Source: Clostridia bacterium
GTDB lineage: Bacteria; Bacillota; Clostridia; Christensenellales; UBA1242
Assembly: GCA_017478185.1 (NCBI GenBank)
Contig: JAFVEA010000009.1
Coordinates: forward strand, 370,527 to 434,526
DNA: 64,000 bases
Reading direction: 5' to 3'
Part shown: one piece after another, positions 10,882 to 42,437 of the stretch
Numbering within the stretch: position 1 is the stretch's first letter
Layout of the letters: each line of letters begins with the position of its first letter
The notes under the pieces: generated by a model
The model's input: only the letters and a program-made list of their open reading frames with translations
The model's database searches: none
Told to the model about the DNA's origin: nothing
Position numbers and translations under genes: made by a program

Positions 10882-10974
10882 TTTTTTCTCCTTAAATTTT
10901 TTATATTTTTTGTATTTTATTATCTTTTGCTTTAAAAGTGTGGAAATCTCACTTGTTTGGCGCTTTTATTCTAT

Positions 10975-11006
10975 GCCATTGTGAGGGCTCTGCCCGTGGC
11001 AATCTC
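10975..11006 (+). repeat. solitary copy of the nested-hairpin repeat family
   Basis: GCCATTGTGAG-GGCTCTGCCC-GTGGCAATCTC matches the GTCATTGCGAG...GTGGCAATCTC variant seen at 41.5-42.2 kb and 45.8-46.1 kb. Confidence 0.7.
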
Positions 11007-11417: not shown

Positions 11418-11446
11418 TTGAAAAATTTGGGTTTTTGTTTTATAAT
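11418..11446 (+). promoter_or_regulatory. sigma70-like promoter of aspS
   Basis: TTGAAA (11418-11423), a 17-nt spacer, then TATAAT (11441-11446), about 35 nt upstream of the aspS ATG. Confidence 0.5.
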
Positions 11447-11480
11447 GATGTTTAGACTATATTATAGGGAGAACAAAAAA

Positions 11481-23977: not shown

Positions 23978-26900
23978 TTATTTAACCTTCATTTTTGTTC
24001 TAAACATCACAAACAAAACAATAACGGCAATAACAACCAAAACACCAACAACAATAAGTATGATTGCAGCTGTGTTTAATGGTTTTGTTATCGTTATTCT
24101 CTGGCTGGAGATGAGAGAACCACTTTTTGAATAGATTTGAACAATATGTGTTCCAACTTCAGAAACTCTGAAAGAAACTTTTTCATTTTGTGAATTTTCT
24201 TCATCAATTGTTGCAACAATGTTGTCATTAACCTTTATATAACAATTTCCAACTTGTTCAAAAATGTTTGATGGGTTATATTCAACACTAAACGATTTTG
24301 TTGAAGAACTTCCCCAGCTCCTTGATGGAGAAATCAAGTTTGAAATCTCATCATTTAGCCAAATATCAAATGAATATTGTTCTTCAACCATTAAAGATGA
24401 GTTAACAGTAACAGTTATTTTATAGCGTCCAGCTCCAACATCTTGAGGCGATAACTTAAAGCTTTCAAGTTTGTTAACACCAAAAAGGCTTTTTAAACTG
24501 CTTGTTATATCTTCATCATTGTTTTCAATGCCTTGTTCAGATTCTTCATCTTTTGTGTAGGTGATTCTTTGAACGGTTGAAACATAATAACCATAAGTTT
24601 TTGCAAAATCATAAACAGTTTTTGCTTCATTTTTGTCAAGAATTGTAAATTGTGCTGTTGCAGATAAAACAACTGTTTGTGATGAATTGGTGTTTAATGG
24701 AGCGCTAATGTCAACCTTATAATATCCAGCCTCCACAAACGTCCAAGAGGTGTTATCGTTTTTAATGAAATCATTATATGGAGCATTGTTTCTTAAAATG
24801 CTGATTTGCACGCGACTTAAGTCATAATTGTTAGCATCATCAAGAGATAATTTTATTCCCTCATCAGTTTTGTTGTAGGTTGCATTTTGAATAGGGTTTT
24901 TGTTGTTTATAAAATAATTTACTTCATTTAATATGAGTAGGGTAAATGTGTCTGTTTTTGTATTACCATCACCAAAATATTGAACTTGACCCACAGCATC
25001 ATAAATTTTTATTTCATATTTTCCACTTTTTGTTAAAATGATGTCATCATAAACTTTTCCCGTCTCAACACTATTATTATATTTTATTTCTAAATATACA
25101 AAATTTGGCGCTATTTCTTCAGTTTTGCCCCAAGTAAGTTTAACATAGGTTGGATTTCCGCTACTTGTTGGATAAATCGTTGTTGTTGTTTTTGTACCTA
25201 TTCCTGAAAATTGTGAATCTAAAAAGTTATTTGTTGTTGATGTGGAATATTGTAGCGTTGTTAAGTTACTAGCTGGAGAAACTTTTGTTATTGCACAATA
25301 AGTTGTTAGATTTTCATTAGAAATTTTATATATTTTTGTGTTTGTATCTGTTGTTTCCGTTGTTACATCCGTTATATCAAAGTCTTGCGCTTCGTTTGGC
25401 AATATTCTTAAATCATTCCACGCATTTTCTAAATTAGACAAGAAGAAATAGTGATAAATATATTTTGTGGAGTCTTCCACTTCATAAGGATATCTATAGT
25501 TGTTCACTGTGTGAGGGGAGAGCTTTTCACCAGCAAAATAAACGCTATAAAGGTCAGAAGTTGCTTCTTTTTTGCTAAAGTTTATTGTGCGAACATTTAT
25601 AACGCCCAAGTCACTTTTAATAATAACGCTATAATCTCCTAATTTATATACTTTATAACCGCTTACTATTGGAATTGTATTATTATCATTAACAACATAA
25701 ACTCTTGGGTTAAACAAAAAGCTATTATTTGGTGTAAATGTTATAATAGTGGTTTTTGAAGTGAATTTTTGTTTGTCGTTTGACGTTAAATCTTCATTTG
25801 CCCACAAAGCTCTGCCAGAGTCATCGGTTAACATTATTTCTTGGGCATATGTATAAATTCCAAAATTATATGTTGTTTTGTTGTTGTCAATGTCAATTAA
25901 AACAATTTCATATGTTAAATGCCTATTTTTTATTGCATTAAAGCTTATTGTAACAACAGAAGTTTGAGAATCTAAGCTTTGTGAAATATATTGTGAATTC
26001 ATATTACAAACATTAACCAAGCTGTTTTCAACTCCATAAGTTGTGTAGGGCAAATCTTTTACGTCAAGAATAACTTCGTCAGCATTAACATCATAAATTT
26101 TTATACTTATTCTGTCATCTTTGCCAGTTACATAATTAAATAGAGTGGTGTTTGGTGTGTAAGGTATGTTGTCATAAACATATGGGGAGCTTTCTTCAAA
26201 AACAAGACCTTTTACCATTTCAGTTGTTGGATAAGTGAATTTATAAATTCTTCCAAAGTTATCTATAAAGCTAAAATTGTATTTATAATAAGATTCAAAC
26301 AAATCAAAAGATAATTTTGTTTGTGAGCTTCTTGATGTGTTTAAATTCAACAAATTGATTTGCGGTGAGCTGTTGTCATATTGAAGTTGAGAATCATTTC
26401 GCCTTATTTCAAAATTCGAATATTTTGTTGAATAAGTGTCTGCTGGCATTGTTATTCTAAATTTTCTATTGTCAATGCGCTCTGGATATAATTCAGAAAT
26501 GCCTATTTCTCTTCCTGGAGTTAACAAATAAAAATCAATATCTTTTCCGCTTCGGTTGTTAAAGATTAATCTTATTTGAGCTCCGTTAGAAGAAGAATTT
26601 AATGCAATCACTTGTCTTAGCCAATCATTTAAAAATTCTATGATTTCATTTTTGTTTTTATATTTGTTTAAAATACTGTCTTTTTTATCCTGACTTAGGT
26701 TTTGATTGTTTCTTATTGAAAGCAAATAATTTTGAGGAGCAACATTAAAAACATATTCACGCAAAAAGTCTTGACCCACATTTCCGTTTTCTAGGCTGAA
26801 TGAAACTTTATACCAAGAATCATTAATTTTAAAATTGTTTGAGTTTAAAACAAATGATGTAACGCTAAGTGATGGGGTGGTGGTTGTGTTATAAGTTGTG

Positions 26901-29900
26901 TTTGAAGTTGTTTCTTGAATCATAAAAGTTTTTTCACCATTTTCATCTGTTTTTGATGAAAATTTAAAGTTAAGTTCATCAGTTGTGAAGTTTGAACCAG
27001 TTGTGGTTAACAAAACTTCATCGTCTGTTTTTGCTATAAAAATTGTATAAACTCTGTGATTTCCAGCTTCATCAACCTCAACAATATCAAAATATCCACT
27101 CACGCTTAGTTGAGTTGTATATTCGTTTGAAGAAAAGCTGTCTTTACTAAATCTTAAGTTTGTGTAGGTGTTATAATCATCACTTTCAGGAATAACTGTT
27201 TGTTTTGGATAAATTGTTCCATCATATTTGTCATCAACTTGTTTATAATAATAAAATTTTCCGTTATCACTTAAATCCAAAGTGCTAAAACTTGAAACAT
27301 CAAAGCTTGAACCAACATTAAAAGCATAATATTTTAAAAACTCATAATCGTGATTGTTTAAATTTCTTTTCATGTCAGCTTTTTGCGAATCTGTTAAATA
27401 AGTGTCATTTTCTATCAAGTTTAACAAACCTTTATAAGGTGAAATATTGTCAATATAAACGCTGTTTGTTGCTGAATAGTAATCTCCATAGATGTTTTCA
27501 TTTCCTATATAATTTATTGTTAATGAATAGAAGTAGTCAGTGTTTTTGCTGTTTTTAGGCAAAATGATATAATAATCATATCTATCTTCGCCAGGAATTT
27601 TAACTCTATAAAACAAAACTCCGCTATTTAAAACAAAATCAGTTAAATCCTCGCCAGAGTAGGTGCCATTTATTCTTTGAATTTCAGGTTCACTAAAACC
27701 GTTTGGATTGCTTGCATCATATTCTCGAACTTTATAATCGTTTTCTTGTGAAGGAGAAATTGATTCCTCTTGCGTTGTCATAACTCCGTCATCGTTTAAG
27801 GTGAAAGAGGTTCTTTTTAAAGTCCAACTTTTGTAGGCAATTTTTGCACGGTAAGGGTCAATCGTGTCACTAAATTTAAACACAACATAATTGTCATTGT
27901 TTGTGTAGGCATAAGTTCCATCAACATTTGCTTTTAATTCTGCTTTTTTTAATTGTGAGTGTGTTGAGCTGTTTTGTATTTCAATTTGTGGAGTGGTTTT
28001 AAGTATTTTAAAAGATAAGCTAACAACATTTGGCACAAAATTTTCGCTATTCCAAAGATCTAAATGACTCCAATCTGTTACTTTTGATGATGCTAAATTT
28101 GCATAGTCACAAACAATAATTCTATAAATTCCAATTTCATTAAATTTGTAAGTTAGCAAGCTACTGAATGGTTCTACGCCATTTGATGAAGAATTAACAT
28201 CTGGTGAATACAAAGTTTGTGACTTAAAAGTGGAATTTTCATTAAAACATTGAACAATTGCCAAAAGCTTTTGATTACTATATTTAGTTCCACTTAAATT
28301 TGAAATAACAATAGGCAACATATTTGTGTTTATGTTTGCAACAGCAGGAGCTTTTATATCAGTGTTAATGTTAAATTCATTTTTAGCGTTTGATTGATTT
28401 CCAAAAGAGTTGAAATAAAATATTTTTGTTGATTCGGCTTCTGTGTAACCCCTAATTGTTTCACCCAATGTTAATTTTGCATTACGCATAGGGTCTATGC
28501 TTCGGTCAACATAGGCTGTGTAAGTTCTTGTAAAAACATCTCCTCTTGAATTTGCTTCATCAAATGCAGTTTTATTAACATAATATCTTGTGAAAACATA
28601 TTTTCCTTGAAGTGTTAGTCCGTTTGGCCCAACGTTTAATGCTGAAGATTGATAATAAGTTCCTGTTGTGTCACCGTCATCGTCATCAGAAGTTGTTGGT
28701 GTCCAGAACACGTTTGATTCCATTCCAGTTCTGGTGTTGGTGAAAATAACATATTCTATTGGAGTGGAGCTGTATGGATTGTTATTGTCTTGATAGGTTA
28801 GTTCATAAAAAGAAAGTGTTATTTTTTCAACTTCAAAAGCGCTTCCGCTATTTGCTTGCTTAAAACTAAATGTCAAGAAATCTCTGTTTGAAATCATATT
28901 TTCAGAAAGTCTTTGTCTGTTTTTGTTTTCGCCTTCATTTGTTGTGTCTGAAATTCCTGTTATATCAATTTGCTCGCTGTGGCTAAAAATTCTTCCGTCC
29001 GATTTATCTAATGAAACATTTTTAGACAAAGTTTTTCTGTTGTTTAAGATGTCGTAGGCAGAAACGCTTAAATTGATATTTTTTGTTAAGTCATAAGCTT
29101 TTCCTTCTTGATTTTCAGTTGATGAAATATAAGCATAAAACTTCTTATTATTTTCTGTTATAACAACATAAGCTGACTGACCAGAAAAAGTTCTTTCATT
29201 CATTTCTGCTTTAGATATTTTTTGAGTGTAATAGAAGTTATTGTTTGAATCCGTTCTAAAGTAGTTTTCAAGTGCATTTGAAATTGTTTCATTTAAAGAG
29301 TAGGTGTTGCCACCCATTTCTATTGAGGTTGTTAAGTTCTTTAAAACATCTTTAACTTGAGATGCGTCAAGCGCTTTATAAGCTCCCCAAGTGAATTTTG
29401 TTGTGGTGTTAACAAGGTCAGTTGTTGTTTGTGTGGATTCTCCAATTCGCTCTTGAATAATTTCTGGAGTTATAGAGTCATAAATGGTTGCAAAACTTGC
29501 GGTGTTTCCGGCCTCATCTTCCAAAAGAAGAATTGCAAAGCAGTTTGAAGAAATGATTTGCTCTGAATTAAAAGGTTCGGTTATGTTTGTGTGTGCATAA
29601 TTTGGGCCTCTCTTAAAATCAGAGAACATTCCATTTGCTGTAACCCAAACTTCATTATTGCCAGACAGTTTTGTTAATTCAAAATCTGGTTTTGAAGTTA
29701 AGTTTGAATAATAATAACTTGCTGTGATTTTTGCTCCACTTGCTTTTTCGTCCCAACTCCAAACAAATGGGGTGTTAACAGTTAAGTCAAAATCGCTTGG
29801 GTTAGTAGTTAGGCTAGACAAAACATTATTAGCTTTGTTGCTAGAGTCAACAGAGTAGGCGCGTATTCCAGAAATAGCGTTTGTGTCAATTGTAAAAGTT

Positions 29901-32521
29901 CGAATAATTGATGAATTTTTGTTGTATTTTATGCGAACAACATATTTTCCATCTCCACTAAAAAGAGTTGGATTTACTTCCAAAATTTCTCCATTTTTGT
30001 CATAAACAAGCCCTTTTAGCGTTGCGTCTGAAATTTCTTTTGTTCCGTCAAAGTTAAATTTGTCATAAGTTGCTGTGATTGGTGTGTCAAATTCATTGTT
30101 TTTAAGCCATTCCACAAACACACGCTTGTTTGTGAATGAGTTTGAAGAAAGTTCGTTTCCACTTCTTGAGATTATGTTTTTTGAATCTGTTTCATCTGTT
30201 GATTTAACAGACACTGTTGGCTGAGAATTTGTTATTCTAAAAGCCAAAACTTGTTGAACATACTTAGCACTATCAACACTATCATCACTGGCATTGTTTT
30301 TAAATGACAAAAACACAAAATAAAGTCCAGCGGCAGAAAATGAAACAGAATTTGTGTAATCATCAACTTCTTCAATTTTACCACTATCACTCACATAAAC
30401 ATACCACATAGAGTTTGCCGAATTGTTTTTTGTTGCGTTATATCTAAGAGAAACTGGAGTTTGGTTTGTTGAAACAAGCCTATTTTTGTTTATGTATATT
30501 TGTTTTGTGCCAAGGTTTAACACGCCTTCACTATAATTTGATGGAGTTGTCTTTTCAAAAACAGCAGAACTTCCTGATGCCGCAGTTAACAAATATGAAA
30601 AATCACTATAAAAATTTTCATTATTTAAAAATTTAACATAAGTTTCATTATCTCTATTATCTCTATAAATTGCTTGATAACCATTGATGTGGATTGTGTT
30701 TGAAATGTTTTGAATGCTTCCTGTTGTTGCGTTTATGCCGTCAGTTTTATAATAAGTTCCGTCAGCAATCTTAAGCTTATATTGCTGGCTTATGGCATAA
30801 TCTCCAATTTCTTTAAATGTGTGATAAGCAATAAATGGCGCATCCAAGTTATATTCACAAACAGTTTTTAAAACTTTGTTATAATAATATGTTTTGTTAT
30901 TTAATGAAATTTTGCCATCAACAGCATTATCATATGTTGTGTTATTATAATCAAAACTAACCAAAGTATCACTTGAAATGTTTAGGTTTTCATAACCTGT
31001 GAGTTTTTCAGTTTTTCTATAAATTGTTTTTTGTTCAATTTGAGTTTTTGAGCCTGTGTTATCTATTTTTGACAAAGTTAATGTTCCATATAAATCATCA
31101 TCAGCAACAAAATCAAAAGTATAATTTTCTATATAACTATAAAGTGTTTTTTCAAAGCTTATCGAATATTTTTCTGGGTTATAAGAAATGGTTGGGTATA
31201 AAAGTTTATCCGTCCACATCCACTTGTCTGTTTTGCTGTCTTTATAAGCAAGCCCTCTAACGCCACCAACTTCAACTTGATAATAAACATCTGTGGTTAT
31301 TTCGATTGCTTCCACATTTTCTTCTTCACCATTGTTATAACTTAAAGTTCCATTCGAAAGCTCTGCACCATCCAAAACTTTTGCATCAAGGTCAAGCAAG
31401 TTGTTTGTTAAAATGTTGTTAAAACCAAAGTAGTGGTCTTTTTGAGTTGTTGTTGTTAAAACAGAGTTAACATTATAAAAATTTAAAAGTTCATTTGTGT
31501 TGGAGTAGGTGTTTGATGTTGTTAAATAAAAAATAAATTGTGCAGTTAACGTTTCTTCAAATCCTGATCCTGGATTAATTCTATAGGTTGTGTTAAAATC
31601 ATACTTACCTTCCAAGCTTTCAAGGTTTTTTGGGCTTGAACTGCTATTTTCTTTTGTGTAAGCAGAACTTGAAATGCCACAGTCATTAATAATTGATGCT
31701 GGAAGTCCGTGATATTCTTTATAGTAGTAAGAATGAACGGTGTCACTGTCTAGCTTTGTTCCAGCAGAATCAATTAAGCTTCCATTATAATTTGTTGAGG
31801 CTTGGTCAATATAATAATTTCCGCCTGGGCCACTAATTTTTATTTGAACTGCCTCGTGGGAAGCAAAAGTTGTGTCTGAAGTCCAAACTGCTGTTTTGGC
31901 GCTACTGTCATAGTTTGAAATTGTTCCATTATTAGAATTTGTTTCAAAAAGATTTCCAAAATTTGTTTGAGTTGTTGTCAAGGTGCTTCCATTTGCTAAG
32001 GTGTCGTAGTCTTCAGTGTAACTTACGCCATTATATGTATAAGAAAAAGTGTTGTTTGTTTCATTTATTGTTAAGTTTAAAACAAGTGGTTTTGTTTTGA
32101 ACCAAAAAAATTTTTTCAAAGTTTCACTATAATAAGCAACACCATTTGTTCCACCAACTTGAACTTTATAGCCTGTTTTTACATCTATTGTTGTGACCTC
32201 GTTTGATGTTGTTAATTCTGTTCCATTAAAATATGTTAAAGTGTTTCCGCTAACTGTTGCATTAGTAAGCTCTGTGTAACTGTCAAGATACACAAAAGGG
32301 TTGCCATTTTCATCAACATCATCCAAAATTATTTCTCGTTCACTTAATATATTATTTGTTTTGTTGTCAACCGTTATTATAGTGGCTTCTATTGCCCCTA
32401 TATTAGCTGCAGCGTTAACTTGTTTTTGCTGAAACAAAAAAGCTCCCAAAAATGATAGTATAGCCAAAACAATTAGTGCCATACTGCCTAAAATTGAATA
32501 TCTTAAAGTGTTTTTTTGCAT
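23978..32521 (-). CDS. giant cell-surface protein (2847 aa) with an N-terminal signal/TM segment and a C-terminal TM anchor; putative adhesin
   Basis: AAGGAG lies 6 nt before the ATG at 32521 (MQKNTLRYSILGSMALIVLAILSFLGAFL). The C-terminus is AAIILIVVGVLVVIAVIVLFVMFRTKMKVK. The composition is N/T/S/Y-rich and beta-like, with an internally repeated ~65-aa module (..VQVGGTNGVAYY.. / ..VEVGGVRGLAYK..). Confidence 0.85.
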   Translation of the reverse strand: MQKNTLRYSILGSMALIVLAILSFLGAFLFQQKQVNAAANIGAIEATIITVDNKTNNILSEREIILDDVDENGNPFVYLDSYTELTNATVSGNTLTYFNGTELTTSNEVTTIDVKTGYKVQVGGTNGVAYYSETLKKFFWFKTKPLVLNLTINETNNTFSYTYNGVSYTEDYDTLANGSTLTTTQTNFGNLFETNSNNGTISNYDSSAKTAVWTSDTTFASHEAVQIKISGPGGNYYIDQASTNYNGSLIDSAGTKLDSDTVHSYYYKEYHGLPASIINDCGISSSAYTKENSSSSPKNLESLEGKYDFNTTYRINPGSGFEETLTAQFIFYLTTSNTYSNTNELLNFYNVNSVLTTTTQKDHYFGFNNILTNNLLDLDAKVLDGAELSNGTLSYNNGEEENVEAIEITTDVYYQVEVGGVRGLAYKDSKTDKWMWTDKLLYPTISYNPEKYSISFEKTLYSYIENYTFDFVADDDLYGTLTLSKIDNTGSKTQIEQKTIYRKTEKLTGYENLNISSDTLVSFDYNNTTYDNAVDGKISLNNKTYYYNKVLKTVCEYNLDAPFIAYHTFKEIGDYAISQQYKLKIADGTYYKTDGINATTGSIQNISNTIHINGYQAIYRDNRDNETYVKFLNNENFYSDFSYLLTAASGSSAVFEKTTPSNYSEGVLNLGTKQIYINKNRLVSTNQTPVSLRYNATKNNSANSMWYVYVSDSGKIEEVDDYTNSVSFSAAGLYFVFLSFKNNASDDSVDSAKYVQQVLAFRITNSQPTVSVKSTDETDSKNIISRSGNELSSNSFTNKRVFVEWLKNNEFDTPITATYDKFNFDGTKEISDATLKGLVYDKNGEILEVNPTLFSGDGKYVVRIKYNKNSSIIRTFTIDTNAISGIRAYSVDSSNKANNVLSSLTTNPSDFDLTVNTPFVWSWDEKASGAKITASYYYSNLTSKPDFELTKLSGNNEVWVTANGMFSDFKRGPNYAHTNITEPFNSEQIISSNCFAILLLEDEAGNTASFATIYDSITPEIIQERIGESTQTTTDLVNTTTKFTWGAYKALDASQVKDVLKNLTTSIEMGGNTYSLNETISNALENYFRTDSNNNFYYTQKISKAEMNERTFSGQSAYVVITENNKKFYAYISSTENQEGKAYDLTKNINLSVSAYDILNNRKTLSKNVSLDKSDGRIFSHSEQIDITGISDTTNEGENKNRQRLSENMISNRDFLTFSFKQANSGSAFEVEKITLSFYELTYQDNNNPYSSTPIEYVIFTNTRTGMESNVFWTPTTSDDDDGDTTGTYYQSSALNVGPNGLTLQGKYVFTRYYVNKTAFDEANSRGDVFTRTYTAYVDRSIDPMRNAKLTLGETIRGYTEAESTKIFYFNSFGNQSNAKNEFNINTDIKAPAVANINTNMLPIVISNLSGTKYSNQKLLAIVQCFNENSTFKSQTLYSPDVNSSSNGVEPFSSLLTYKFNEIGIYRIIVCDYANLASSKVTDWSHLDLWNSENFVPNVVSLSFKILKTTPQIEIQNSSTHSQLKKAELKANVDGTYAYTNNDNYVVFKFSDTIDPYRAKIAYKSWTLKRTSFTLNDDGVMTTQEESISPSQENDYKVREYDASNPNGFSEPEIQRINGTYSGEDLTDFVLNSGVLFYRVKIPGEDRYDYYIILPKNSKNTDYFYSLTINYIGNENIYGDYYSATNSVYIDNISPYKGLLNLIENDTYLTDSQKADMKRNLNNHDYEFLKYYAFNVGSSFDVSSFSTLDLSDNGKFYYYKQVDDKYDGTIYPKQTVIPESDDYNTYTNLRFSKDSFSSNEYTTQLSVSGYFDIVEVDEAGNHRVYTIFIAKTDDEVLLTTTGSNFTTDELNFKFSSKTDENGEKTFMIQETTSNTTYNTTTTPSLSVTSFVLNSNNFKINDSWYKVSFSLENGNVGQDFLREYVFNVAPQNYLLSIRNNQNLSQDKKDSILNKYKNKNEIIEFLNDWLRQVIALNSSSNGAQIRLIFNNRSGKDIDFYLLTPGREIGISELYPERIDNRKFRITMPADTYSTKYSNFEIRRNDSQLQYDNSSPQINLLNLNTSRSSQTKLSFDLFESYYKYNFSFIDNFGRIYKFTYPTTEMVKGLVFEESSPYVYDNIPYTPNTTLFNYVTGKDDRISIKIYDVNADEVILDVKDLPYTTYGVENSLVNVCNMNSQYISQSLDSQTSVVTISFNAIKNRHLTYEIVLIDIDNNKTTYNFGIYTYAQEIMLTDDSGRALWANEDLTSNDKQKFTSKTTIITFTPNNSFLFNPRVYVVNDNNTIPIVSGYKVYKLGDYSVIIKSDLGVINVRTINFSKKEATSDLYSVYFAGEKLSPHTVNNYRYPYEVEDSTKYIYHYFFLSNLENAWNDLRILPNEAQDFDITDVTTETTDTNTKIYKISNENLTTYCAITKVSPASNLTTLQYSTSTTNNFLDSQFSGIGTKTTTTIYPTSSGNPTYVKLTWGKTEEIAPNFVYLEIKYNNSVETGKVYDDIILTKSGKYEIKIYDAVGQVQYFGDGNTKTDTFTLLILNEVNYFINNKNPIQNATYNKTDEGIKLSLDDANNYDLSRVQISILRNNAPYNDFIKNDNTSWTFVEAGYYKVDISAPLNTNSSQTVVLSATAQFTILDKNEAKTVYDFAKTYGYYVSTVQRITYTKDEESEQGIENNDEDITSSLKSLFGVNKLESFKLSPQDVGAGRYKITVTVNSSLMVEEQYSFDIWLNDEISNLISPSRSWGSSSTKSFSVEYNPSNIFEQVGNCYIKVNDNIVATIDEENSQNEKVSFRVSEVGTHIVQIYSKSGSLISSQRITITKPLNTAAIILIVVGVLVVIAVIVLFVMFRTKMKVK

Positions 32522-32720
32522 ATTAAACTCCTTTGACTTTTGTTTTCCCGACCAAATTGCAAAGAATAATTTTGTCATTTACTTACAAAATTTTAACATA
32601 TTATGCCTTTTTTTACAACTAAAAACAAAGAAAATTGAAAAATTTATCACAAATATTTTTAGTTTTTTTAAAAATTTATATACACAAAATTTTAATTTTT
32701 TATATTTTATAAATATAACA

Positions 32721-35405: not shown

Positions 35406-38243
35406 ATGAAAAAAGTTATGACAAGGTTTTTTAGTCTGCTTTTTGCGTTTGCCTTCTCTTTTTTTTGTTGCGGTTGCACTTTCACTTATAACAAAGAAGA
35501 TGTAACACCGAGGTCAGATTATTATGTGCCATCACCAACCCCTTCAACCGATTCATCCAGCAGTGATGATGATTCATCAGACGAAGAAGAAAGTGGAGGC
35601 TACACTGGTTCTGGAGAATTTTTGCGTAATGGCAAAGGTGAATATGTTGGCTATAGTGGATATTGGAAGAAATTTTCTGGCATCCGGCTTTCAACAAACC
35701 CACAAGTTTATGATGTTCCAAATGATGTTTATGAAGACACAAAATCAGAGCGTGAAAGATTTTTTAGAAATGTTTATGAACAATTTGATGTTTTATCGCA
35801 AGTTATAGAAAATTATATGAACGGAGTTTTTGGCTTGGGTGTGGATGAAAACACTTTTTCTAGTGGGGATTATCATATAAAAACTGCTGCATTAAACCCA
35901 ATTGTTAAATTAGATTATGATCAAGATGAAGAATATAACAAAATGATTGGCAACACAACCGAAAACATAATGAACACCTATTTAACTGGTTGGACTTATG
36001 AAAAAAAAGGGGATGTTTATGAGTTAACGCAAAACAAAGCTTCTTCTGATGATTCAAAAAAATTTAAAATTAATTTTTCGGATTCAGAAAAGAGCACTCA
36101 GAACAAAAATTTTGTTATAGCAAGGCTTATGGAAATTGTTTTGAAAAAAGAAGAAAAAACAACTTATTCTTTTGCGGAAAATGAAACAAACATAAATGAC
36201 AGAATAAATGGCTATCAAAAAGAATTTAATCAGCTTGGTTTTGACTATAGCAAAATTGAACAGGCTGTTGTTGATTTTATAAAAACAGAACTTATTGGTG
36301 AAGATGTTATAAATTATTATAAAAGTTCAAAAAGCTTTTCAGAACCATATATTGATGAAAACAACAATGGGCAGTTTGATGAGCCTGAACCTTTTGTTGA
36401 AGATGATTTAGATTTTATAAAACAAACATTTATAGAAGGAACTTATCAATATTTTGTTGATGTAAACAAAAATGGCATAAAAAACAGCAATGAGCCACTT
36501 TTAAGAGATATCATACGAGAAGGGGACTCCGAAAGCGGAATTTATTATTATGATAGTTCTAATTTTGAAGGCTTGTTTTTAGACGGCATAATGTGTGATG
36601 ATAATTATGGAATTTATTATATAAATGAAGACGATAATGGGGAGTTTAATGAGGGAGAAGAAATAATGCTTACAACAAAAATTGTTAGTATGCATTATTA
36701 TGATGTAAATGAAAACAGCACATTTGACGGTGATGATCAAAAATTGTTAAAAGATGAAACTGGGAATTTTTATTATATAGATAACGATGCTGACGGCGTG
36801 TTTACACAAGACACAGACCAAAAAATCACAGAACATATTGTTAATATGTATTATTTTGATGCAAACAGCAATAAAGTGTTTGATTCTGGTGACAAAGTTT
36901 TAAAGTATGATGCAAGTGGGCAGTTTTATTATTGTGATAAAGATGAAAATGGAGAATACACATCAGGCGAACCAATGTTTAGATTTGCTCCAACAATAGA
37001 GCGTTATTTTCAAGATTTGATTAACAACACAAAATGGGATAATGAATTATATTTTGATATAAACAACAATAAGCAATATGATTCAAGCTTTAGCGTGAGC
37101 GAAAATGAACCATTTTGTTTTGATTTAGATTCTTATATAAATGATTTTAGTGATTACCTAAAAACATATATAAACGGTGAGCCTTTTGATGATGAAGATG
37201 AAGACGGCAAATATAAATATGGCGAGCCTGGTGACCCAGGTGAATCATTTGTTGATGCCAACAAAAATGGAATATATGATGAAGGACTTTTTAAGATTGT
37301 GTCAGTTGAAGTTTTGGATATTGAATCAAAAACATATTTTCATCCAGGCATAAAAGCTGTGTATGAAAAAACAACAAATGAAGATGACGAAGAAGAGTGG
37401 GTTTTAAAGCAAAAACGAACTTTAACAAATATGCCATATGACAGTTACACAAGTTGTGTGTTTGTTGCAAACGATAGCATTCCATTTTCAAATATTAACA
37501 TCTATGTTGATTCTGAAGAAGATTTTTTGCTTGACATTTATTTGAAATTTTATGTCAATTCTGAAAATTATTTTATCACAAAGCTTTGCGCTTTAAATTT
37601 GGATCACACACAAAGTTGTGATTTTATTGGGGATTATGAAGAAAGGCTCCGAAAATCAACTGGTGAGGTTGAAAACGGCGAAACCGCGTGGGAAACTCAA
37701 AGAGATTTTTGTTATGATTCTGAAATCAAACGAAATGCAATTAGTTATTTGTCTGTTGGAAAATATTTTAAAAATTTAACAAAAGATGATTACATTTTAA
37801 ATTATAATTTGCCAGAAGATCTTGAGCAAGAGTTTGATGAACTAGGGGATGAAAAAGAATTAGGAATAATGGCGATTCTTGTTCGTGCTGGAGTTATTGA
37901 AAAATTAAATGAAGAAATAAAATATAACCAAAGAGTTGATGAAAATGAAAAAACTTGGGGTTATCACACAAGCAAGGTTAACAACCATGAAGTTGGTTAT
38001 AACTATAGCTATCAAACAATAAAAAAATCTTTCACTGATGAAAATAAAAACGGAGAGTATGATGAGGGCGAACAGTTTGTTGACAGCAATGGAAACGGCA
38101 TATATGATGAAGGAGATGAACTCAAAGCTCTTTGTTATGACAACCCAGATGAAACCTATTTTGAATTTGTTTTTGTTCCTCATCAAAATGAAAGTGCACA
38201 AAATTATAATTTTAAGTTTTTAATAACAACACCAAACTTATAA
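35406..38243 (+). CDS. large probable lipoprotein (945 aa) with an array of EF-hand-like Ca-binding loops
   Basis: GGGAGGG RBS. The signal peptide ends in FFCCGC (a non-canonical lipobox), followed by an S/D/E-rich linker. About 12 D-x-[DN]-x-[DN]-G-x-[FY]-x-x-x-[DE] loops lie between nt 36354 and 38117. Terminator at 38253-38285. Confidence 0.7.
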   Translation: MKKVMTRFFSLLFAFAFSFFCCGCTFTYNKEDVTPRSDYYVPSPTPSTDSSSSDDDSSDEEESGGYTGSGEFLRNGKGEYVGYSGYWKKFSGIRLSTNPQVYDVPNDVYEDTKSERERFFRNVYEQFDVLSQVIENYMNGVFGLGVDENTFSSGDYHIKTAALNPIVKLDYDQDEEYNKMIGNTTENIMNTYLTGWTYEKKGDVYELTQNKASSDDSKKFKINFSDSEKSTQNKNFVIARLMEIVLKKEEKTTYSFAENETNINDRINGYQKEFNQLGFDYSKIEQAVVDFIKTELIGEDVINYYKSSKSFSEPYIDENNNGQFDEPEPFVEDDLDFIKQTFIEGTYQYFVDVNKNGIKNSNEPLLRDIIREGDSESGIYYYDSSNFEGLFLDGIMCDDNYGIYYINEDDNGEFNEGEEIMLTTKIVSMHYYDVNENSTFDGDDQKLLKDETGNFYYIDNDADGVFTQDTDQKITEHIVNMYYFDANSNKVFDSGDKVLKYDASGQFYYCDKDENGEYTSGEPMFRFAPTIERYFQDLINNTKWDNELYFDINNNKQYDSSFSVSENEPFCFDLDSYINDFSDYLKTYINGEPFDDEDEDGKYKYGEPGDPGESFVDANKNGIYDEGLFKIVSVEVLDIESKTYFHPGIKAVYEKTTNEDDEEEWVLKQKRTLTNMPYDSYTSCVFVANDSIPFSNINIYVDSEEDFLLDIYLKFYVNSENYFITKLCALNLDHTQSCDFIGDYEERLRKSTGEVENGETAWETQRDFCYDSEIKRNAISYLSVGKYFKNLTKDDYILNYNLPEDLEQEFDELGDEKELGIMAILVRAGVIEKLNEEIKYNQRVDENEKTWGYHTSKVNNHEVGYNYSYQTIKKSFTDENKNGEYDEGEQFVDSNGNGIYDEGDELKALCYDNPDETYFEFVFVPHQNESAQNYNFKFLITTPNL
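36354..38117 (+). repeat. region of dispersed EF-hand-like loop repeats (protein level)
   Basis: Loops read from the translation:
- DENNNGQFDEPE
- DVNKNGIKNSNE
- NEDDNGEFNEGE
- DVNENSTFDGDD
- DNDADGVFTQDT
- DANSNKVFDSGD
- DKDENGEYTSGE
- DINNNKQYDSS
- DEDEDGKYKYGE
- DANKNGIYDEG
- DENKNGEYDEGE
- DSNGNGIYDEGD
They are often preceded by an aromatic YY/YF. Confidence 0.7.
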
Positions 38244-38252
38244 CACAAAAAC

Positions 38253-38285
38253 AAAAAACTTAAGGCTTTTTGCCTTAAGTTTTTT
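38253..38285 (+). terminator. intrinsic terminator after the lipoprotein gene
   Basis: ACTTAAGGC/GCCTTAAGT stem followed by T5. Confidence 0.7.
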
Positions 38286-38396
38286 CATAAAAATTGGTTT
38301 TTTTGGCAAAATAAAAATATATTTGTATTTTTTTGTTAAATTTGTTGGACTTTAATTTTTATATTTGTTAAAATTTATAAAAAAGGAGGTTGCTTG

Positions 38397-41348
38397 ATGG
38401 ATTTTTTCATGATAGGTAATTGCTTGATGACTTTTTTCATGCTTGGTGCTGATGATACGTTGCACAAAGCTCTTGATGTTTTGAGGAAAAACAACCCTAT
38501 TTTTGAAGGAATTGGTGTTATTTGGGATACTGTAACTGGTGACCCTATAGGAAATATAGCATCAGAAATATCAACATTTTTTACAGGAACAATAATGCCA
38601 ATCATAACTGCTCCTATCGCGTTTTTATTGTATTCTTTTCAAGTGGGCTTCTTTTATTTAATTGATTGTGTTCAAGCAATTTTTAAATCCATGGCAGGGC
38701 TTTCTGTTCATTATAAAGATGGAGAGGTTAAGGGCGCCATAGATGACAGCGCTTTACCTGAAGATATTGTTGTTTCGATGATCCAAAGCAATGTTATAAT
38801 GGATGTTTTTTGGTCTGTTTTGGTGGCCTCAGTTATGCTTGTTTTTATTATGTCCATAATAGCCATTGTCCGGCAAGAATTCACCGAGCAAGGTGCGGGC
38901 AATTCAAAAACAAAGATTATAGGAAAAGCCATAAAAGCAATAGCCTATTTTGCAATTGTTCCTATTGTTTGTATTGGCGGAATTTATATTTCAAACATCT
39001 TTTTAAGAACTTTTGACAAAGTCACATCAAACGGCTCTTATTCGCTTAGCCGAACAGTGTTTTACGCAGCGGCGCAAGGAGCAAACAGATTGGCTAATTC
39101 TGAAGAAAGATATAACAAATTGATGCATGGTGATGATCAGTGGAAGAAAGATGTTCGACAAGTTTTAGGAATTAGTAGTTATGCTGGCACAGATTTTGAG
39201 GTTGGTGATAATGCCAATAATGTGGCCCATGCTATTGATAATGCGTTTTTACGAGATTTAGATAATAATATAAAATATGTCAATTATGTTGCGATTAATT
39301 TAAACTTATCTGATAAAAGCGTAACTTATTATGCTCGTCCCACACCACAAAATCCAGTTGTTTATTTGATGAATGTAAAAACTGACACTATAGATAATAA
39401 GACATATATGGTGAGTGAGGAGTTGGCCGTCATTAATGATAAGTATGTTAGTATGGATTTTAGTAAATTTATAACATTCACCGTAGATGAGAATGGTTTT
39501 TACACATATAAATGGAATGGCGATCAACTTGAAGCAACGCGTACAATAGTGGAAAGCGTTGGTTGTAATCCATCAGATGTTAAAGAGCCTACCTTCCCTA
39601 CTTTCGACAAGAAAAGACTTTATATTAAGACTGGAGGCCTTGATGATATTCCTATGCTTGGTTTATTCTTAATAAATGGTGTTGATATAAACTTCACCAC
39701 CTTTTCAATCACGAACATACAGCTTGTTTTCTATTTTTATGATTTGTTTATGGGGTATAACTATATTCTAGGCTATGTTGGTGGCTTTACGGCTGCAATG
39801 TTGTTGCTTTCAACCTGCCTTGGGCTAATTCAAAGAATTTATGAGCTTGTCATATTGTTTGTGATTTCGCCAGCATTTATTTCATTCATGCCACTTGATG
39901 ACGGCAAAAAATATGAAGGTTGGCGAGCTCAGTTTGTTAGCCGTGTTGGAATGGCATATGGGCCAGTTATTGGAATAAACCTTATGTTCATTGTTTTGGC
40001 AGAACTTCAACACATAACAATCTTCCCAACTGGAGGCATAAACACATTGTTTAACGCAATTGTGAACCTAATCTTCATGATTGTTGGGCTTTTGGCTGTT
40101 AAAGAGTTTTCATCAATGATTTCAGGCCTTTTGGGGCAAAGCGATGCCCTAAAAACTGGTGAAGGCTTAAAAGAAGGCACTCAAAAAATGGCTGGCAGAA
40201 TTGCTGGTGGAACCATTTCCGCCGCAAGAACTGGACAGGCGATTACAAAGGCAGCATATGCAAGCACTTTTGGGAGAAGTGGAAAACAGACGGGTGCTAG
40301 AGGCTGGGTAAATAGAAGGATGGGAATAAACAGTAAAAAAGATTCAGATGAAAAGAAGTTAGGAAATCAAATGAAAGCAATGCTTAATGGAGATAAAAGT
40401 GAAATTGGTGGTGCTTGGCAACAATTTACAAAATCAGCAGGAAAAGGTTTTGAACGTTATTTAACCCAAAAAGGAATTGCCGGAGCAACTGAAAATGGGG
40501 AATCTTTTGTTGGAGCGTTGCCATTTTGGAAGACAAAAAAAGGAAGAGGCACTATTACAGAAAGAGATAAAGATAAAAAAGAGGATAAAGAGGCAGCTGA
40601 TGCTAAGAAAACTAAAAGAACTGAACTTGATACAGAAAAAGAGTGGAAAGAAGAACAAGCTGCCAAAAAACACAACATTCTTCCTGTGGGAGAAGTTGAT
40701 AAAGCAACTGGGAAAAAGAAGGAAGCATATACTGAAGATGAGCAAAAAGTTATTGATGAAGAACTAAAATCAGGTGGCGCAGGAGGTGGCGCAACTGGAG
40801 AAGGCAGTGCAGGCTCTGGTGGAAATGTTGAAACCTTTAATGCTCAAGTGTTAAATGTTGGTGGTGTTAATGGGAAAGGCGAAGCTGCAGATAACAATAT
40901 TAATGTTGAAAACCCAGATGAAGTTACTGTTGAAGCACCGCCAGAAGGCATGGATGATGAAACCTTGAATGCGATGTCTGCCGCTATGGGTAACCCAGTT
41001 ACAGTTGAGACAAATGAAACCAATGTTAATAGTGATGAAACAGAAGATGACGTTAATAGTGCTGAGATTAACAATGAACAAGCAGAAACCCAAAAAGATG
41101 GCGAGAAAAGTGAGGAGAAGACTCAAGATGTCAATGTTAAGAATCAAGTTGGTGTTAAAGCAAACGACGGACAAAAGGTTTCAATAATAACTGAATCATT
41201 AGGCCCATTGGTAACAAAACTAGAGAGAGTTGTGGACGGACTTATTGATTTGAAACAAGGCATAAAAGATCAAACAGAGATAATAAAAACCTTAAGTGTT
41301 TCTAAAAAAGCCTCAGGATCTTTCTTTGGACGCCTTAGAGGAAAATGA
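38397..41348 (+). CDS. polytopic membrane protein, VirB6/TrbL-like T4SS channel candidate, with a ~400-aa charged C-terminal tail
   Basis: GGAGG lies 7 nt before the ATG at 38397. About 7-8 TM segments surround a ~200-aa loop. The core LIQRIYELVILFVISPAFISFMPLDDGKKYEGWRAQFVSRV resembles the conserved VirB6/TrbL-type core. From about nt 40140 the sequence is K/E/D/G-rich and low-complexity. Confidence 0.6.
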   Translation: MDFFMIGNCLMTFFMLGADDTLHKALDVLRKNNPIFEGIGVIWDTVTGDPIGNIASEISTFFTGTIMPIITAPIAFLLYSFQVGFFYLIDCVQAIFKSMAGLSVHYKDGEVKGAIDDSALPEDIVVSMIQSNVIMDVFWSVLVASVMLVFIMSIIAIVRQEFTEQGAGNSKTKIIGKAIKAIAYFAIVPIVCIGGIYISNIFLRTFDKVTSNGSYSLSRTVFYAAAQGANRLANSEERYNKLMHGDDQWKKDVRQVLGISSYAGTDFEVGDNANNVAHAIDNAFLRDLDNNIKYVNYVAINLNLSDKSVTYYARPTPQNPVVYLMNVKTDTIDNKTYMVSEELAVINDKYVSMDFSKFITFTVDENGFYTYKWNGDQLEATRTIVESVGCNPSDVKEPTFPTFDKKRLYIKTGGLDDIPMLGLFLINGVDINFTTFSITNIQLVFYFYDLFMGYNYILGYVGGFTAAMLLLSTCLGLIQRIYELVILFVISPAFISFMPLDDGKKYEGWRAQFVSRVGMAYGPVIGINLMFIVLAELQHITIFPTGGINTLFNAIVNLIFMIVGLLAVKEFSSMISGLLGQSDALKTGEGLKEGTQKMAGRIAGGTISAARTGQAITKAAYASTFGRSGKQTGARGWVNRRMGINSKKDSDEKKLGNQMKAMLNGDKSEIGGAWQQFTKSAGKGFERYLTQKGIAGATENGESFVGALPFWKTKKGRGTITERDKDKKEDKEAADAKKTKRTELDTEKEWKEEQAAKKHNILPVGEVDKATGKKKEAYTEDEQKVIDEELKSGGAGGGATGEGSAGSGGNVETFNAQVLNVGGVNGKGEAADNNINVENPDEVTVEAPPEGMDDETLNAMSAAMGNPVTVETNETNVNSDETEDDVNSAEINNEQAETQKDGEKSEEKTQDVNVKNQVGVKANDGQKVSIITESLGPLVTKLERVVDGLIDLKQGIKDQTEIIKTLSVSKKASGSFFGRLRGK

Positions 41349-41480
41349 AATTAAATTATTGAGATAAAACACTTCAAAACACCCAAGATAAACCACGGGA
41401 CAAAAAAGCTTAAAAAAGATAACGGGGCAAATAAAAAGCCTTAAACAAAAAGCTTTGTTTAACACAAAGGTTAAGAACAA

Positions 41481-41508
41481 AAAAAGCACAAAATTTGTGC
41501 TTTTTTTG
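41481..41508 (+). terminator. intrinsic terminator after the VirB6-like gene
   Basis: AGCACAAA/TTTGTGCT hairpin followed by T7. Confidence 0.65.
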
Positions 41509-41536
41509 TTGTTTTTAGAGATGAGGTTTATTTTTT

Positions 41537-41742
41537 GTCATTCTGAGGAGGCACGAAGTGCCGACGTGAGAATCTCAGAGATTGCCACAGCCCTAAAGGG
41601 CTTCGCAATGACATAAAGGAGTTGAGATTGCCACGCAAGATAAATCCTGCTCGCAATGACAGAGGAGGAGTGTCATTCTGAGAAACGAAGTCTCTATTCT
41701 CTGTCATTCTGAGGAGGCACGAAGTGCCGACGTGAGAATCTC
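41537..41742. repeat. cluster of nested-hairpin repeats (5 units, both orientations)
   Basis: Two identical 40-mers, GTCATTCTGAGGAGGCACGAAGTGCCGACGTGAGAATCTC, lie at 41537-41576 and 41703-41742. Reverse-orientation units GAGATTGCCAC...CGCAATGACA lie at 41578-41613 and 41624-41661. A degenerate unit lies at 41672-41701. Confidence 0.9.
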
Positions 41743-41778
41743 CTTGACAAAGTTTTTTTATTGTTATAGACTTATTCT

Positions 41779-42057
41779 ATGGAATATTATGTTTACATTT
41801 TAAGCAATAAAACAAATAGTGTTTTATATGTTGGAGTTACAAATAATTTAGTAAAGCGTGTTTTTGAACATAAAAGCAAAGTCATTGAAGGCTTTACAAA
41901 AAAATATAACATTAATAAATTGATTTATTATGAAATAACAACAGATATTTATAGTGCGATAACACGAGAAAAACAAATTAAAAGTTGGAATAGAAAAAGA
42001 AAAATTGATTTAATTGCAACAACTAACCCTGATTTTAAAGAGCTTGATATAGTATGA
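41779..42057 (+). CDS. small GIY-YIG nuclease family protein (COG2827/UPF0213-like, 92 aa)
   Basis: YVYILSNKTNSVLYVGVTNNLVKRVFEHK and REKQIKSWNRKRKIDLI are hallmark motifs. There is no SD. TTGACA at 41744-41749 abuts the upstream repeat. Confidence 0.85.
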   Translation: MEYYVYILSNKTNSVLYVGVTNNLVKRVFEHKSKVIEGFTKKYNINKLIYYEITTDIYSAITREKQIKSWNRKRKIDLIATTNPDFKELDIV

Positions 42058-42064
42058 TAATTCA

Positions 42065-42249
42065 GAGATTGCCACAGCCCTAAAGGGCTTCGCAATGACA
42101 TAAAATATAAGTAAAGTCCCATGCAATAAAATGACATAAAATATAAGTAAAGCCCCGTGCAATAACAAGAAGAAAAATTATTCTGAAATAAAAAAGCTAT
42201 TTCAACCCACCTGTCATTCTGAGCAAAACTTGTTTTGCGTGAGAATCTC
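42065..42249. repeat. repeat cluster downstream of the GIY-YIG gene
   Basis: 42065-42100 is identical to 41578-41613 (36 nt). A tandem 36-bp direct repeat lies at 42095-42130 and 42131-42166. The unit GTCATTCTGAGCAAAACTTGTTTTGCGTGAGAATCTC lies at 42213-42249. Confidence 0.9.
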
Positions 42250-42325
42250 TTGTAATTAAAAGTAAATGAACAAGATTTTTTTTGCTTCTATCCGCGAAAA
42301 AATCTTCTAAGAACTTTTGTGGGTT

Positions 42326-42390
42326 AACATACAAAGCTGTTGTTTTTTGTATGTTTTTTTGCAAAAAGGCCAAAAATGTTTGGCTTTTTT
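42326..42390 (+). terminator. two consecutive terminator-like hairpins
   Basis: AACATACAAA/TTTGTATGTT followed by T6 (42326-42360), and GCCAAA/TTTGGC followed by T6 (42363-42390). Confidence 0.55.
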
Positions 42391-42408
42391 AAAATATTAT
42401 ATTATAAT
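42380..42408 (+). promoter_or_regulatory. sigma70-like promoter of the VirB4-like gene
   Basis: TTGGCT, a 17-nt spacer, then TATAAT, 30 nt upstream of the ATG at 42438. Confidence 0.4.
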
Positions 42409-42437
42409 TTAGTTAAAATAAAAATAGGGGAACAAAA

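Follow-up and report, generated by a model that had tools for sequence, protein, structure and literature searches.

REP (repetitive extragenic palindromic) elements are short (25-45 nt) intergenic palindromes with an invariant tag beside a stem whose pairing is kept as its sequence varies; they occur as singlets and as inverted doublets (REPINs) with short spacers, many repeats are served by one or a few enzyme genes per genome, the gene of the enzyme, the REP-associated tyrosine transposase (RAYT), lies between two inverted repeats, and repeat subtype tracks enzyme clade (PMC3116915, PMC3337134, PMC3479197, PMC3733652). All of these traits, including the inverted doublets with short spacers, are found in a family of hairpin repeats that we describe here from Clostridia bacterium (contig JAFVEA010000009.1, positions 370,527 to 434,526 of the forward strand; "the window" refers throughout to this whole stretch of 64,000 nucleotides), where the repeats flank a gene encoding a 92-aa stand-alone GIY-YIG nuclease. 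We assign a probability of roughly 0.6 to the reading that these units form, at the level of DNA, a selfish repeat system of the REPIN/RAYT kind, whose cognate enzyme is the structure-specific GIY-YIG nuclease. In its workings the system resembles REP/REPIN-RAYT without belonging to it, since tag and enzyme differ: the tag is GTCAT…ATC(T/C) rather than GTAG or CGTC (there is no GTCAT string in PMC3733652), and the flanked gene encodes a 92-aa GIY-YIG hydrolase instead of an HUH/Y1 transposase, with no covalent strand transfer. Furthermore, each unit is a hairpin within a hairpin, whose internal loop usually contains tandem G·A, and the host range of the 80 gene-bearing loci described below includes Clostridia, the candidate phyla radiation (CPR), Cyanobacteria, Omnitrophota and Chloroflexi. 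In the searchable literature no paper joins GIY-YIG proteins to REP, REPIN, miniature inverted-repeat transposable elements (MITEs) or hairpin repeats, and none prints the unit consensus, subscription journals being mostly beyond reach and an earlier partial description therefore possible.

Three other systems offer partial precedents. The ends of IS200/IS605 elements and the attC sites of integrons are also folded DNA hairpins with a few fixed bases and stems that are free to covary, but the enzymes there are a Y1 transposase and a tyrosine recombinase, and the sites are single defined ends or cassette arrays, whereas the units described here are dispersed singlets and doublets. On the enzyme side, Slx1/HIGLE and the UPF0213 proteins (1zg2, 1ywl, 6seh, 7wme) share the same minimal GIY-YIG fold; Slx1 cuts branched DNA, and a hairpin or cruciform extruded from a unit would be such a substrate, although the window protein, unlike Slx1, has neither a RING/PHD domain nor an Slx4 partner. 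A survey of the superfamily places 1zg2 and 1ywl in the bacterial stand-alone Slx1 branch, for which it assumes a repair role and vertical descent, and makes no mention of an association with hairpins (PMC1564403). Finally, the free-standing GIY-YIG homing endonucleases (T4 Seg, I-TevI) belong to the same catalytic superfamily and are likewise selfish genes between host genes; however, they have long C-terminal DNA-binding modules and long asymmetric targets, whereas the window protein is the catalytic domain alone and structurally nearer to Slx1 than to I-TevI, and repeat families are no part of their biology. To our knowledge, break-induced repair is the only mode of mobility of GIY-YIG chemistry, and we know of no UPF0213 protein for which an activity has been measured.

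An earlier note on the window, made from the letters alone, had proposed a family of repeat units with shared termini, and the pattern counts agree with it: the terminus GTCATTSYGAG occurs at 14 sites against 1.75 expected (0 of 100 shuffles as high) and the terminus GTGRSAATCTC at 16 sites against 1.95 expected, and the matches cluster at three intergenic loci, A (10938-11006), B (41537-42249) and C (45695-46115). A covariance model built from the units recovered 11 full units, and nothing else, from the 64 kb; about 6 further partial copies were spotted by eye. With a GC content of 0.38-0.62, against ~0.31 for the window, the units are indeed GC-rich patches in AT-rich DNA. Folding turns each full unit into a nested hairpin: the outer stem has 5 bp (ATTCT/AGAAT or ATTGC/GCAAT), GAG faces GTG in a small internal loop, and the inner stem, free in sequence, has 5-7 bp. 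The inner segment had been described as always self-complementary: the palindromes listed are all present (GGCAC/GTGCC, GCAAAAC/GTTTTGC, AGCCC/GGGCT, GCAAG/CTTGC, GGGGC/GCCCC), but "always" is too strong, as the copy at 45778-45817 is degenerate with a decayed inner stem (fold z = +0.93) and several copies are partial. Identical copies and both orientations were found as described: 41529-41576 and 41695-41742 are 96% identical over 48 nt, with the 40-nt unit inside at 100%, 41575-41617 equals 42062-42104 at 100% over 43 nt, and units occur on both strands. In loci B and C all plus-strand units have the CT/AG outer stem and all minus-strand units GC/GC; strands alternate and gaps are irregular in the window, which does not fit a CRISPR array, with its one orientation, regular spacing and unique spacers.

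Covariation of the outer stem (CT/AG versus GC/GC), also claimed from the sequence at the outset, was evaluated in 21 aligned units of the Clostridia type, to which the window contributed 9. Paired cells amount to 90%, compared with 69.7±2.0 in shuffles (0 of 500 as high), double-change cells to 53 compared with 17.7±3.3, and the covariation score is 0.508 compared with 0.162, slid controls reaching at most 0.156. Three stem tests in other genomes, based on TGTCAT…ATC[TC] anchors, on a metagenome pattern and on viral contigs, and none selecting on pairing, give the same answer. Between TGTCAT and a downstream ATC[TC], three complementary stem positions are found in 399 of 1140 cases versus 42±6 in shuffles; in the metagenome hits, in which two variable stem positions are free on both sides, 168 of 169 are Watson-Crick paired (25% by chance); and 185 of 202 hits in viral contigs have a complementary outer stem. 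At least 6 outer-stem types occur while the tags stay invariant. There is thus a clear excess of compensatory changes, in keeping with selection on a folded structure rather than on sequence. From 501 distinct units we obtain the consensus T-GTCAT-[T/c][S/t][Y]-GAG-…-(S)GA-[R][S][A]-ATC-[T/C], that is, an architecture of T-GTCAT, 5-bp outer stem, GAG, a variable inner hairpin, outer stem and ATC(T/C). Most often the internal loop is a tandem G·A/A·G; in the lineage of the window GAG faces GTG instead. Inner segments have a mean folding energy of −3.1 kcal/mol versus −1.8 kcal/mol for shuffles. Pairing between neighbouring units was considered and rejected, since complementarity lies within the unit (the same 168 of 169) and the stems of doublet partners differ in about half of the cases.

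The GIY-YIG gene of locus B, single copy in the window, is bracketed by a plus-strand unit, u1', and a minus-strand unit, u2', and the identical pair of units without the gene, u1/u2, lies 166 bp upstream. The gene-less doublet (41537-41613, 1-nt gap) and the gene-bearing one differ by a 322-bp cassette, which opens with a promoter-like site; the position of this site 6 nt before the ATG suggests, on sequence grounds, a leaderless transcript of the cassette. The only Pfam match of the 92-aa ORF is the GIY-YIG catalytic domain PF01541 (E 9e-17), NCBIfam gives no match over cut-off, and in the PDB its sequence matches nothing but 1zg2 and 1ywl, two UPF0213 proteins that are uncharacterised. All residues invariant across 30 homologues (Y6, Y17, G19, R27, H31, E64 and others) are kept by the window protein. 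Its AlphaFold (AF2) model has a predicted local distance difference test (pLDDT) value of 94.8, and Foldseek ranks 1zg2 first; next come Slx1 and At-HIGLE, which are nucleases of branched DNA, and after these UvrC and I-TevI. By its motifs, its Arg/His/Glu residues, its minimal ~90-aa domain and its lack of auxiliary domains, the protein fits the Slx1/UPF0213-like stand-alone branch of the superfamily. Every doublet in the window pairs two units of unlike stem type; as a general rule this was rejected, because overall 64 doublets have the same and 68 different stem types (random expectation 51%).

The association of unit and gene extends well beyond the window. There are more than 1,400 close homologues of the window protein at 60-70% identity, in hosts that include Christensenellales, Ignavibacteriales, Actinomycetota and Uhrbacteria. 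We sampled 80 loci with a homologous gene, one genome per species and from more than 15 phyla, out of at least 594 such loci that exist. TGTCATT is enriched 17-fold within 300 bp of these genes; TGTCAT[TC] reaches a density of 3-9 per kb within 100 bp of the gene, versus ~0.2 per kb beyond 1 kb, and its plus orientation dominates upstream and its minus orientation downstream. A strict unit is found within 200 bp of 74 of 77 homologous genes, compared with 42 of 1065 control intervals (3.9%), and strict units stand on both sides of 54 of the 77 genes but of none of the 1065 control intervals. The statement of the earlier note that such hairpins adjoin small GIY-YIG genes in other phyla is therefore accurate. 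The layout is nearly universal, (+)unit, 30-80 bp, ORF, 10-60 bp, (−)unit, also in Uhrbacteria, Ignavibacteria and Actinomycetota, so that the architecture of a gene within a doublet is conserved in more than 15 phyla. Protein clades track unit subtypes: nearest-neighbour proteins agree in the GAG-loop versus simple-stem subtype with a frequency of 0.78 (0.59±0.06 in shuffles, 0 of 1000 as high) and in the tail, ATCT versus ATCC, with a frequency of 0.81 (again 0.59±0.06, 0 of 1000); no signal was detected when the internal-loop subtype, GTG versus other, was set against protein clade. A search of the plasmid database matched only the GIY-YIG ORF, on a Planktothrix plasmid, and no related element. 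Some homologues (P0039, P0046, P0059) end in "…SSLRSE" (alignment columns 113-119), because the ORF reads into the (−) unit.

Units greatly outnumber genes, and most are solitary or form gene-less doublets. Only 6 of the 120 unit-bearing metagenome loci also carry the gene, which lies within 500 bp of 1 of 68 well-flanked metagenome hits; since so few unit loci carry the gene, the relation between units and gene is asymmetric, as it is for REPs and the RAYT gene. Among gene-less neighbour pairs the arrangement (+)(−) occurs 156 times, in 110 cases with a gap of at most 30 nt, compared with 111 pairs (−)(+), 31 (+)(+) and 48 (−)(−). In 5 of 54 loci the unit pair that flanks the gene is seen again close by as a doublet without a gene, and whole doublets recur with identical spacers at loci L059 (2 copies, 45-bp) and L083 (4 copies, 42-bp), so that the copied entity often seems to be the inverted doublet. 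Some IMG/VR contigs predicted to be viral, namely L295, where the pattern matches 15 times over 13 kb, and L299, with 8 matches over 6.6 kb, are very rich in units and have no GIY-YIG gene; they may represent prophage or host DNA, or units acting in trans. A further trait of the family is an orphan copy of a unit's own 5' head, placed upstream of the unit across a short T-rich linker, in 55 of 682 full units (3, 10 and 18 in mirror controls). Such orphan heads are found in the window at both outer ends of the gene-bearing doublet (41672-41702, 42094-42165) and at 46049-46078, and also at L004, L007, L015, L019, L021, L030, L059 and L124, with a copy number that varies among strains; they may be the footprint of cleavage and repair. 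MITEs are marked by terminal inverted repeats shared with an autonomous element and by target-site duplications; the doublets here share both ends with the gene-bearing copy, and no consistent target-site duplication was seen, the one candidate being an ambiguous "TC" at the junction of the window cassette.

These distributions bear on the alternative that best withstands the evidence, although we consider it unlikely: a free-standing GIY-YIG homing gene would target the junction of a pre-existing (+)(−) doublet, and the hairpins, spread by a host process or by another enzyme, would be a mere landing site. The gene does occupy the position of the short spacer of a gene-less doublet, with an identical empty doublet in the window and in 4 other loci, and its insertion parts two half-sites as the logic of homing demands, but empty doublets remain uncut and unconverted beside the gene, for example 166 bp away in the window. 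Units are also abundant without genes, as expected if they spread by other means; yet no other candidate enzyme is linked to them, their tags and subtypes track the protein across phyla, and doublets with identical spacers multiply without the gene. Moreover, the protein lacks a DNA-binding domain of the sort that a long asymmetric target would require.

Comparison with relatives and among strains shows that the arrays come and go. In two relatives (L227 and L228, 82% identical in a VirB4-like protein) both orthologous sites, of 180 bp and 64 bp, contain only a terminator or promoter, with no units and no gene; a third (L229, 79%) has different units, GTCATTCTGAG…CGAAGAATCTC, and no gene at the site of locus B, and nothing at that of locus C. 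Relatives lacking the arrays keep the same gene order, and the arrays of the window, which start just past host terminators, are lineage-specific insertions. In one species of gut Clostridia a block of unit head and linker is present in 1, 2 or 3 tandem copies depending on the strain; in another, a present/absent segment of ~450 bp has its first letters exactly at TGTCATTGCGAGG, one unit is split behind its head by an insertion of 155 bp, and the flank of one strain diverges exactly after …CAATGACA. Both edges of the indels between strains fall at TGTCAT or within a unit, and strain-level rearrangements break at unit ends or unit centres. These absences and breakpoints are in keeping with the comparison to REP and MITE elements made in the earlier note, and the family is neither confined to the three loci of the window nor free of polymorphism.

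We regard as improbable the explanation of a domesticated or host-beneficial partnership, in which a housekeeping structure-specific nuclease processes palindrome hairpins or cruciforms (resolving replication problems or trimming, like SbcCD or Slx1) among vertically inherited repeats. Vertically inherited residence has already been proposed for some REPIN-RAYT pairs, and here the Slx1-like fold, the invariant catalytic residues and the single gene copy in the window are all compatible with it. Close relatives, however, lack gene and arrays at the orthologous sites, and in the gut species with the variable block of head and linker the GIY-YIG cassette has inserted into what is left of another selfish cassette, that of DUF559. 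The family has been seen in the earlier literature as vertically inherited repair enzymes (PMC1564403), but the gene travels with its flanking units, in the same architecture, through more than 15 phyla at 53-70% identity.

Whether the structure acts as DNA or as RNA can be judged from its pairing and context. Of 356 units, 341 pair by Watson-Crick rules throughout, and the other 15 contain a single mismatch (G·T in 5, A·C in 3), with no excess of wobble pairs. A scan for T-tracts and terminators in the window flagged only the host terminators at 41476-41510 and ~42369-42384 and no unit. The Rfam search gave 0 matches at gathering thresholds, and at E ≤ 10 chance-level overlaps only (E 6-9, e.g. 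mir-1270, 46028-46091). Both unit orientations are interleaved between co-directional genes. Taken together, these observations favour a DNA-level reading: the unit structure is more likely read on DNA, as a hairpin or cruciform, than as a transcript, although transcription is compatible with it. The possibility that the units are intrinsic terminators was rejected, as they have no T-tract and the host terminators are separate from them. More generally, it is very improbable that the units are regulatory elements at the RNA level (terminators, mRNA stabilisers, insulators, small RNAs) kept for host expression and only incidentally near the GIY-YIG gene: their intergenic location beside gene ends, their stable stem-loops and the secondary roles of this kind described for REPs are outweighed by the absence of Rfam hits on any unit at gathering score and of T-tracts, by the canonical terminators that host genes have of their own upstream of the arrays, by the interleaved orientations in one co-directional intergenic region, by the lack of wobble excess, by the unchanged gene order of relatives without arrays, and by a 96% association with one nuclease family, which is not incidental.

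We return to the reading of the units as a selfish repeat system with a cognate nuclease. In the mechanism we propose, the nuclease would recognise both the invariant GTCAT/ATCY tags and the fold of the unit, a hairpin or an extruded cruciform (branched DNA, like the substrate of Slx1), and would cut at the recognised unit. The breaks would then be mended by host recombination or synthesis from another copy, and this copying by repair would multiply units, doublets and the gene-bearing doublet, in a process akin to homing rather than to strand transfer by a transposase. Orphan 5' heads could be left behind by such cut-and-repair copying. Indirect support for this scheme comes from the Slx1-like fold, from the agreement in unit subtype between nearest-neighbour proteins and from the recurrent orphan heads themselves. 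Several observations weigh against the scheme. Most units lie far from any gene, and none of 120 viral unit loci has one, so that a dependence of units on the nuclease in trans is no more than presumed. Among the homologous genes, 3 of 77 have no strict unit within 200 bp, and at L010 the gene lies between two doublets and not within one. The agreement of protein clade with unit subtype (0.78 for loop, 0.81 for tail) is confounded by host relatedness, and inner-stem self-complementarity is moderate across the family, only 27% of units beating 95% of their shuffles. The sole same-species partner, L226, is the identical strain and shows no polymorphism, and recent activity has thus left no sign in this genome. 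Finally, a GIY-YIG hydrolase is incapable of strand transfer, and any copying mechanism, which would therefore need host repair, is conjecture.

The coordinates of the units and associated features in the window are collected in Table 1.

Table 1. Hairpin units, partial copies and associated features at loci A, B and C of the window.
Position	Strand	Feature	Basis
10938..10950	+	Locus A: orphan 3' tail of unit (GTGTGGAAATCTC)	pattern match, 1 mismatch
10975..11006	+	Locus A: degenerate full unit (GCCATTGTGAGGGCTCTGCCCGTGGCAATCTC)	covariance model 35.4 bits, E 6.5e-5; fold
41476..41510	+	host intrinsic terminator of 984-aa gene; hairpin array begins right after	terminator scan, inverted repeat
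41537..41576	+	unit u1, CT/AG outer stem, inner GGCAC-gaa-GTGCC; left half of gene-less doublet	model 44.7 bits
41578..41613	-	unit u2, GC/GC outer stem, inner AGCCC-ttta-GGGCT; right half of gene-less doublet, 1 nt past u1	model 44.4 bits
41624..41660	-	unit u3, GC/GC outer stem, inner GCAGGAT/ATCTTGC	model 51.5 bits
41672..41702	+	orphan 5' head (GTCATTCTGAG...) and pyrimidine-rich linker, immediately ahead of u1'	no unit fold
41703..41742	+	unit u1', equal to u1; left flank of GIY-YIG cassette	repeat family; covariance model
41744..41772	+	promoter-like TTGACA-17-TAGACT, ending 6 nt ahead of ATG	10/12 consensus positions; consensus match only
41779..42057	+	92-aa stand-alone GIY-YIG nuclease gene (UPF0213/Slx1-like)	PF01541 E 9e-17
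42065..42100	-	unit u2', equal to u2; right flank of GIY-YIG cassette	100% over 43 nt; covariance model
42094..42165	-	two 36-bp tandem blocks, 94%	each an orphan head TGTCATT+13 nt and T-rich linker CTTTACTTATATTTTA, ahead of u2'
42213..42249	+	unit u4, CT/AG outer stem, inner GCAAAAC-tt-GTTTTGC	model 49.9 bits
~42369-42384		host terminator	terminator scan
~45655-45683		host terminator just before locus C	sequence
45695..45740	+	start of locus C: two 20-bp tandem copies (TTTTATAATAACAACCGTGA), end being orphan 3' tail CGTGAGAAT	sequence
45740..45767	-	partial decayed unit (GTGGCAATTTC tail)	1 mismatch; model 10.7 bits, E 3.5
45778..45817	+	degenerate unit (GTTATTCTGAG...GTGAGAATCTC), inner stem decayed	z +0.93; model 39.3 bits
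45889..45925	-	unit (GGCATTGCGAG..., inner GCAAG/CTTGC)	model 46.2 bits
46004..46038	-	unit, GC/GC outer stem, inner GGGGC-tttt-GCCCC	z -3.9; model 48.8 bits
46049..46078	+	orphan 5' head and T-rich linker, ahead of next unit	pattern match
46079..46115	+	unit, near-copy of u4 (GTT for GTG ahead of 3' stem half)	model 45.6 bits

The locus A unit at 10975-11006 lies in a divergent intergenic region, between ORFs 9166-10881(-) and 11418-13229(+). In locus C the motif TTTAAAGCGCC(C/A)AACA occurs at 45873-45888 and 45985-46000, at equal distance before two minus-strand units, and because of this fixed distance the local repeat may exceed the hairpin unit. The hairpin loci are set in an apparent conjugative or type IV secretion region (window 35406-45077), with a VirB4/TraG-like ATPase at 42438-45077 (PF19044, DUF87) and two large proteins, of 945 and 984 aa, that lack annotation and are of membrane or surface type; in the relative L227 a T4SS_pilin gene lies upstream (L227:1-99). 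The window also contains two giant ORFs, of 2896 aa (394-9084) and 2866 aa (23978-32578).

Other small genes with hairpins of their own were encountered near GIY-YIG cassettes. In a species of gut Clostridia, ~1.3 kb upstream of its GIY-YIG gene, one slot (L086:600-1360, L087:680-1370) holds, depending on the sample, the gene of a 119-aa 23S_rRNA_IVP protein (four-helix bundle) or that of a 118-aa DUF559 endonuclease. The IVP gene is flanked by its own inverted hairpins, CTCGATA followed by a hairpin on one side and a hairpin followed by TATCGAG on the other, and the DUF559 gene by ATGATTTG with a hairpin and a hairpin with AAATCAT, plus a long inner inverted repeat. The two small-gene families co-occur again in a CPR genome (Uhrbacteria L001:4523-4879), where a 23S_rRNA_IVP gene lies downstream of the GIY-YIG gene at a distance of 1.2 kb. 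A fourth hairpin family (hairpin followed by ATAAATTG) accounts for a 52-bp, two-unit strain difference (L086:2217-2330 versus L087-L093) just upstream of GTCAT units. In L086-L093, the 3' end of a DUF559 gene, with its terminal inverted repeat, is located ~80-200 bp past the GIY-YIG stop codon; by this remnant, one selfish cassette inserted into, or truncated, another. The IVP and DUF559 cassettes suggest that there are several parallel systems, each made of a tiny gene and its own hairpin family.

There is a fair chance that the repeats described here are a distinct class driven by a nuclease. The broadest form of this proposal, which we put forward tentatively and at a little less than even odds, is that GTCAT hairpins and the stand-alone Slx1-like nuclease are previously unrecognised pan-bacterial mobile repeats, the hydrolase counterpart of REPIN/RAYT, spread by cleavage and repair copying, and maybe one of several parallel systems (23S_rRNA_IVP, DUF559) that compete for intergenic slots. 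On the practical side, a minimal 92-aa nuclease comes with a defined candidate DNA structure, and the hypervariable intergenic sites would be useful in strain typing of gut Clostridia. Read-through into units explains the annotation artefact of the "SSLRSE" type, and such unit-derived tails contaminate protein predictions. If our reading is correct, the widespread stand-alone UPF0213/Slx1-like family (more than 1,400 close homologues, at least 594 loci), whose function has so far been guessed to be repair, would acquire both a substrate and a role, and a second, mechanistically different pairing of repeat and enzyme would stand beside REPIN/RAYT, so that the persistence of intragenomic replicators could be compared directly between the two.

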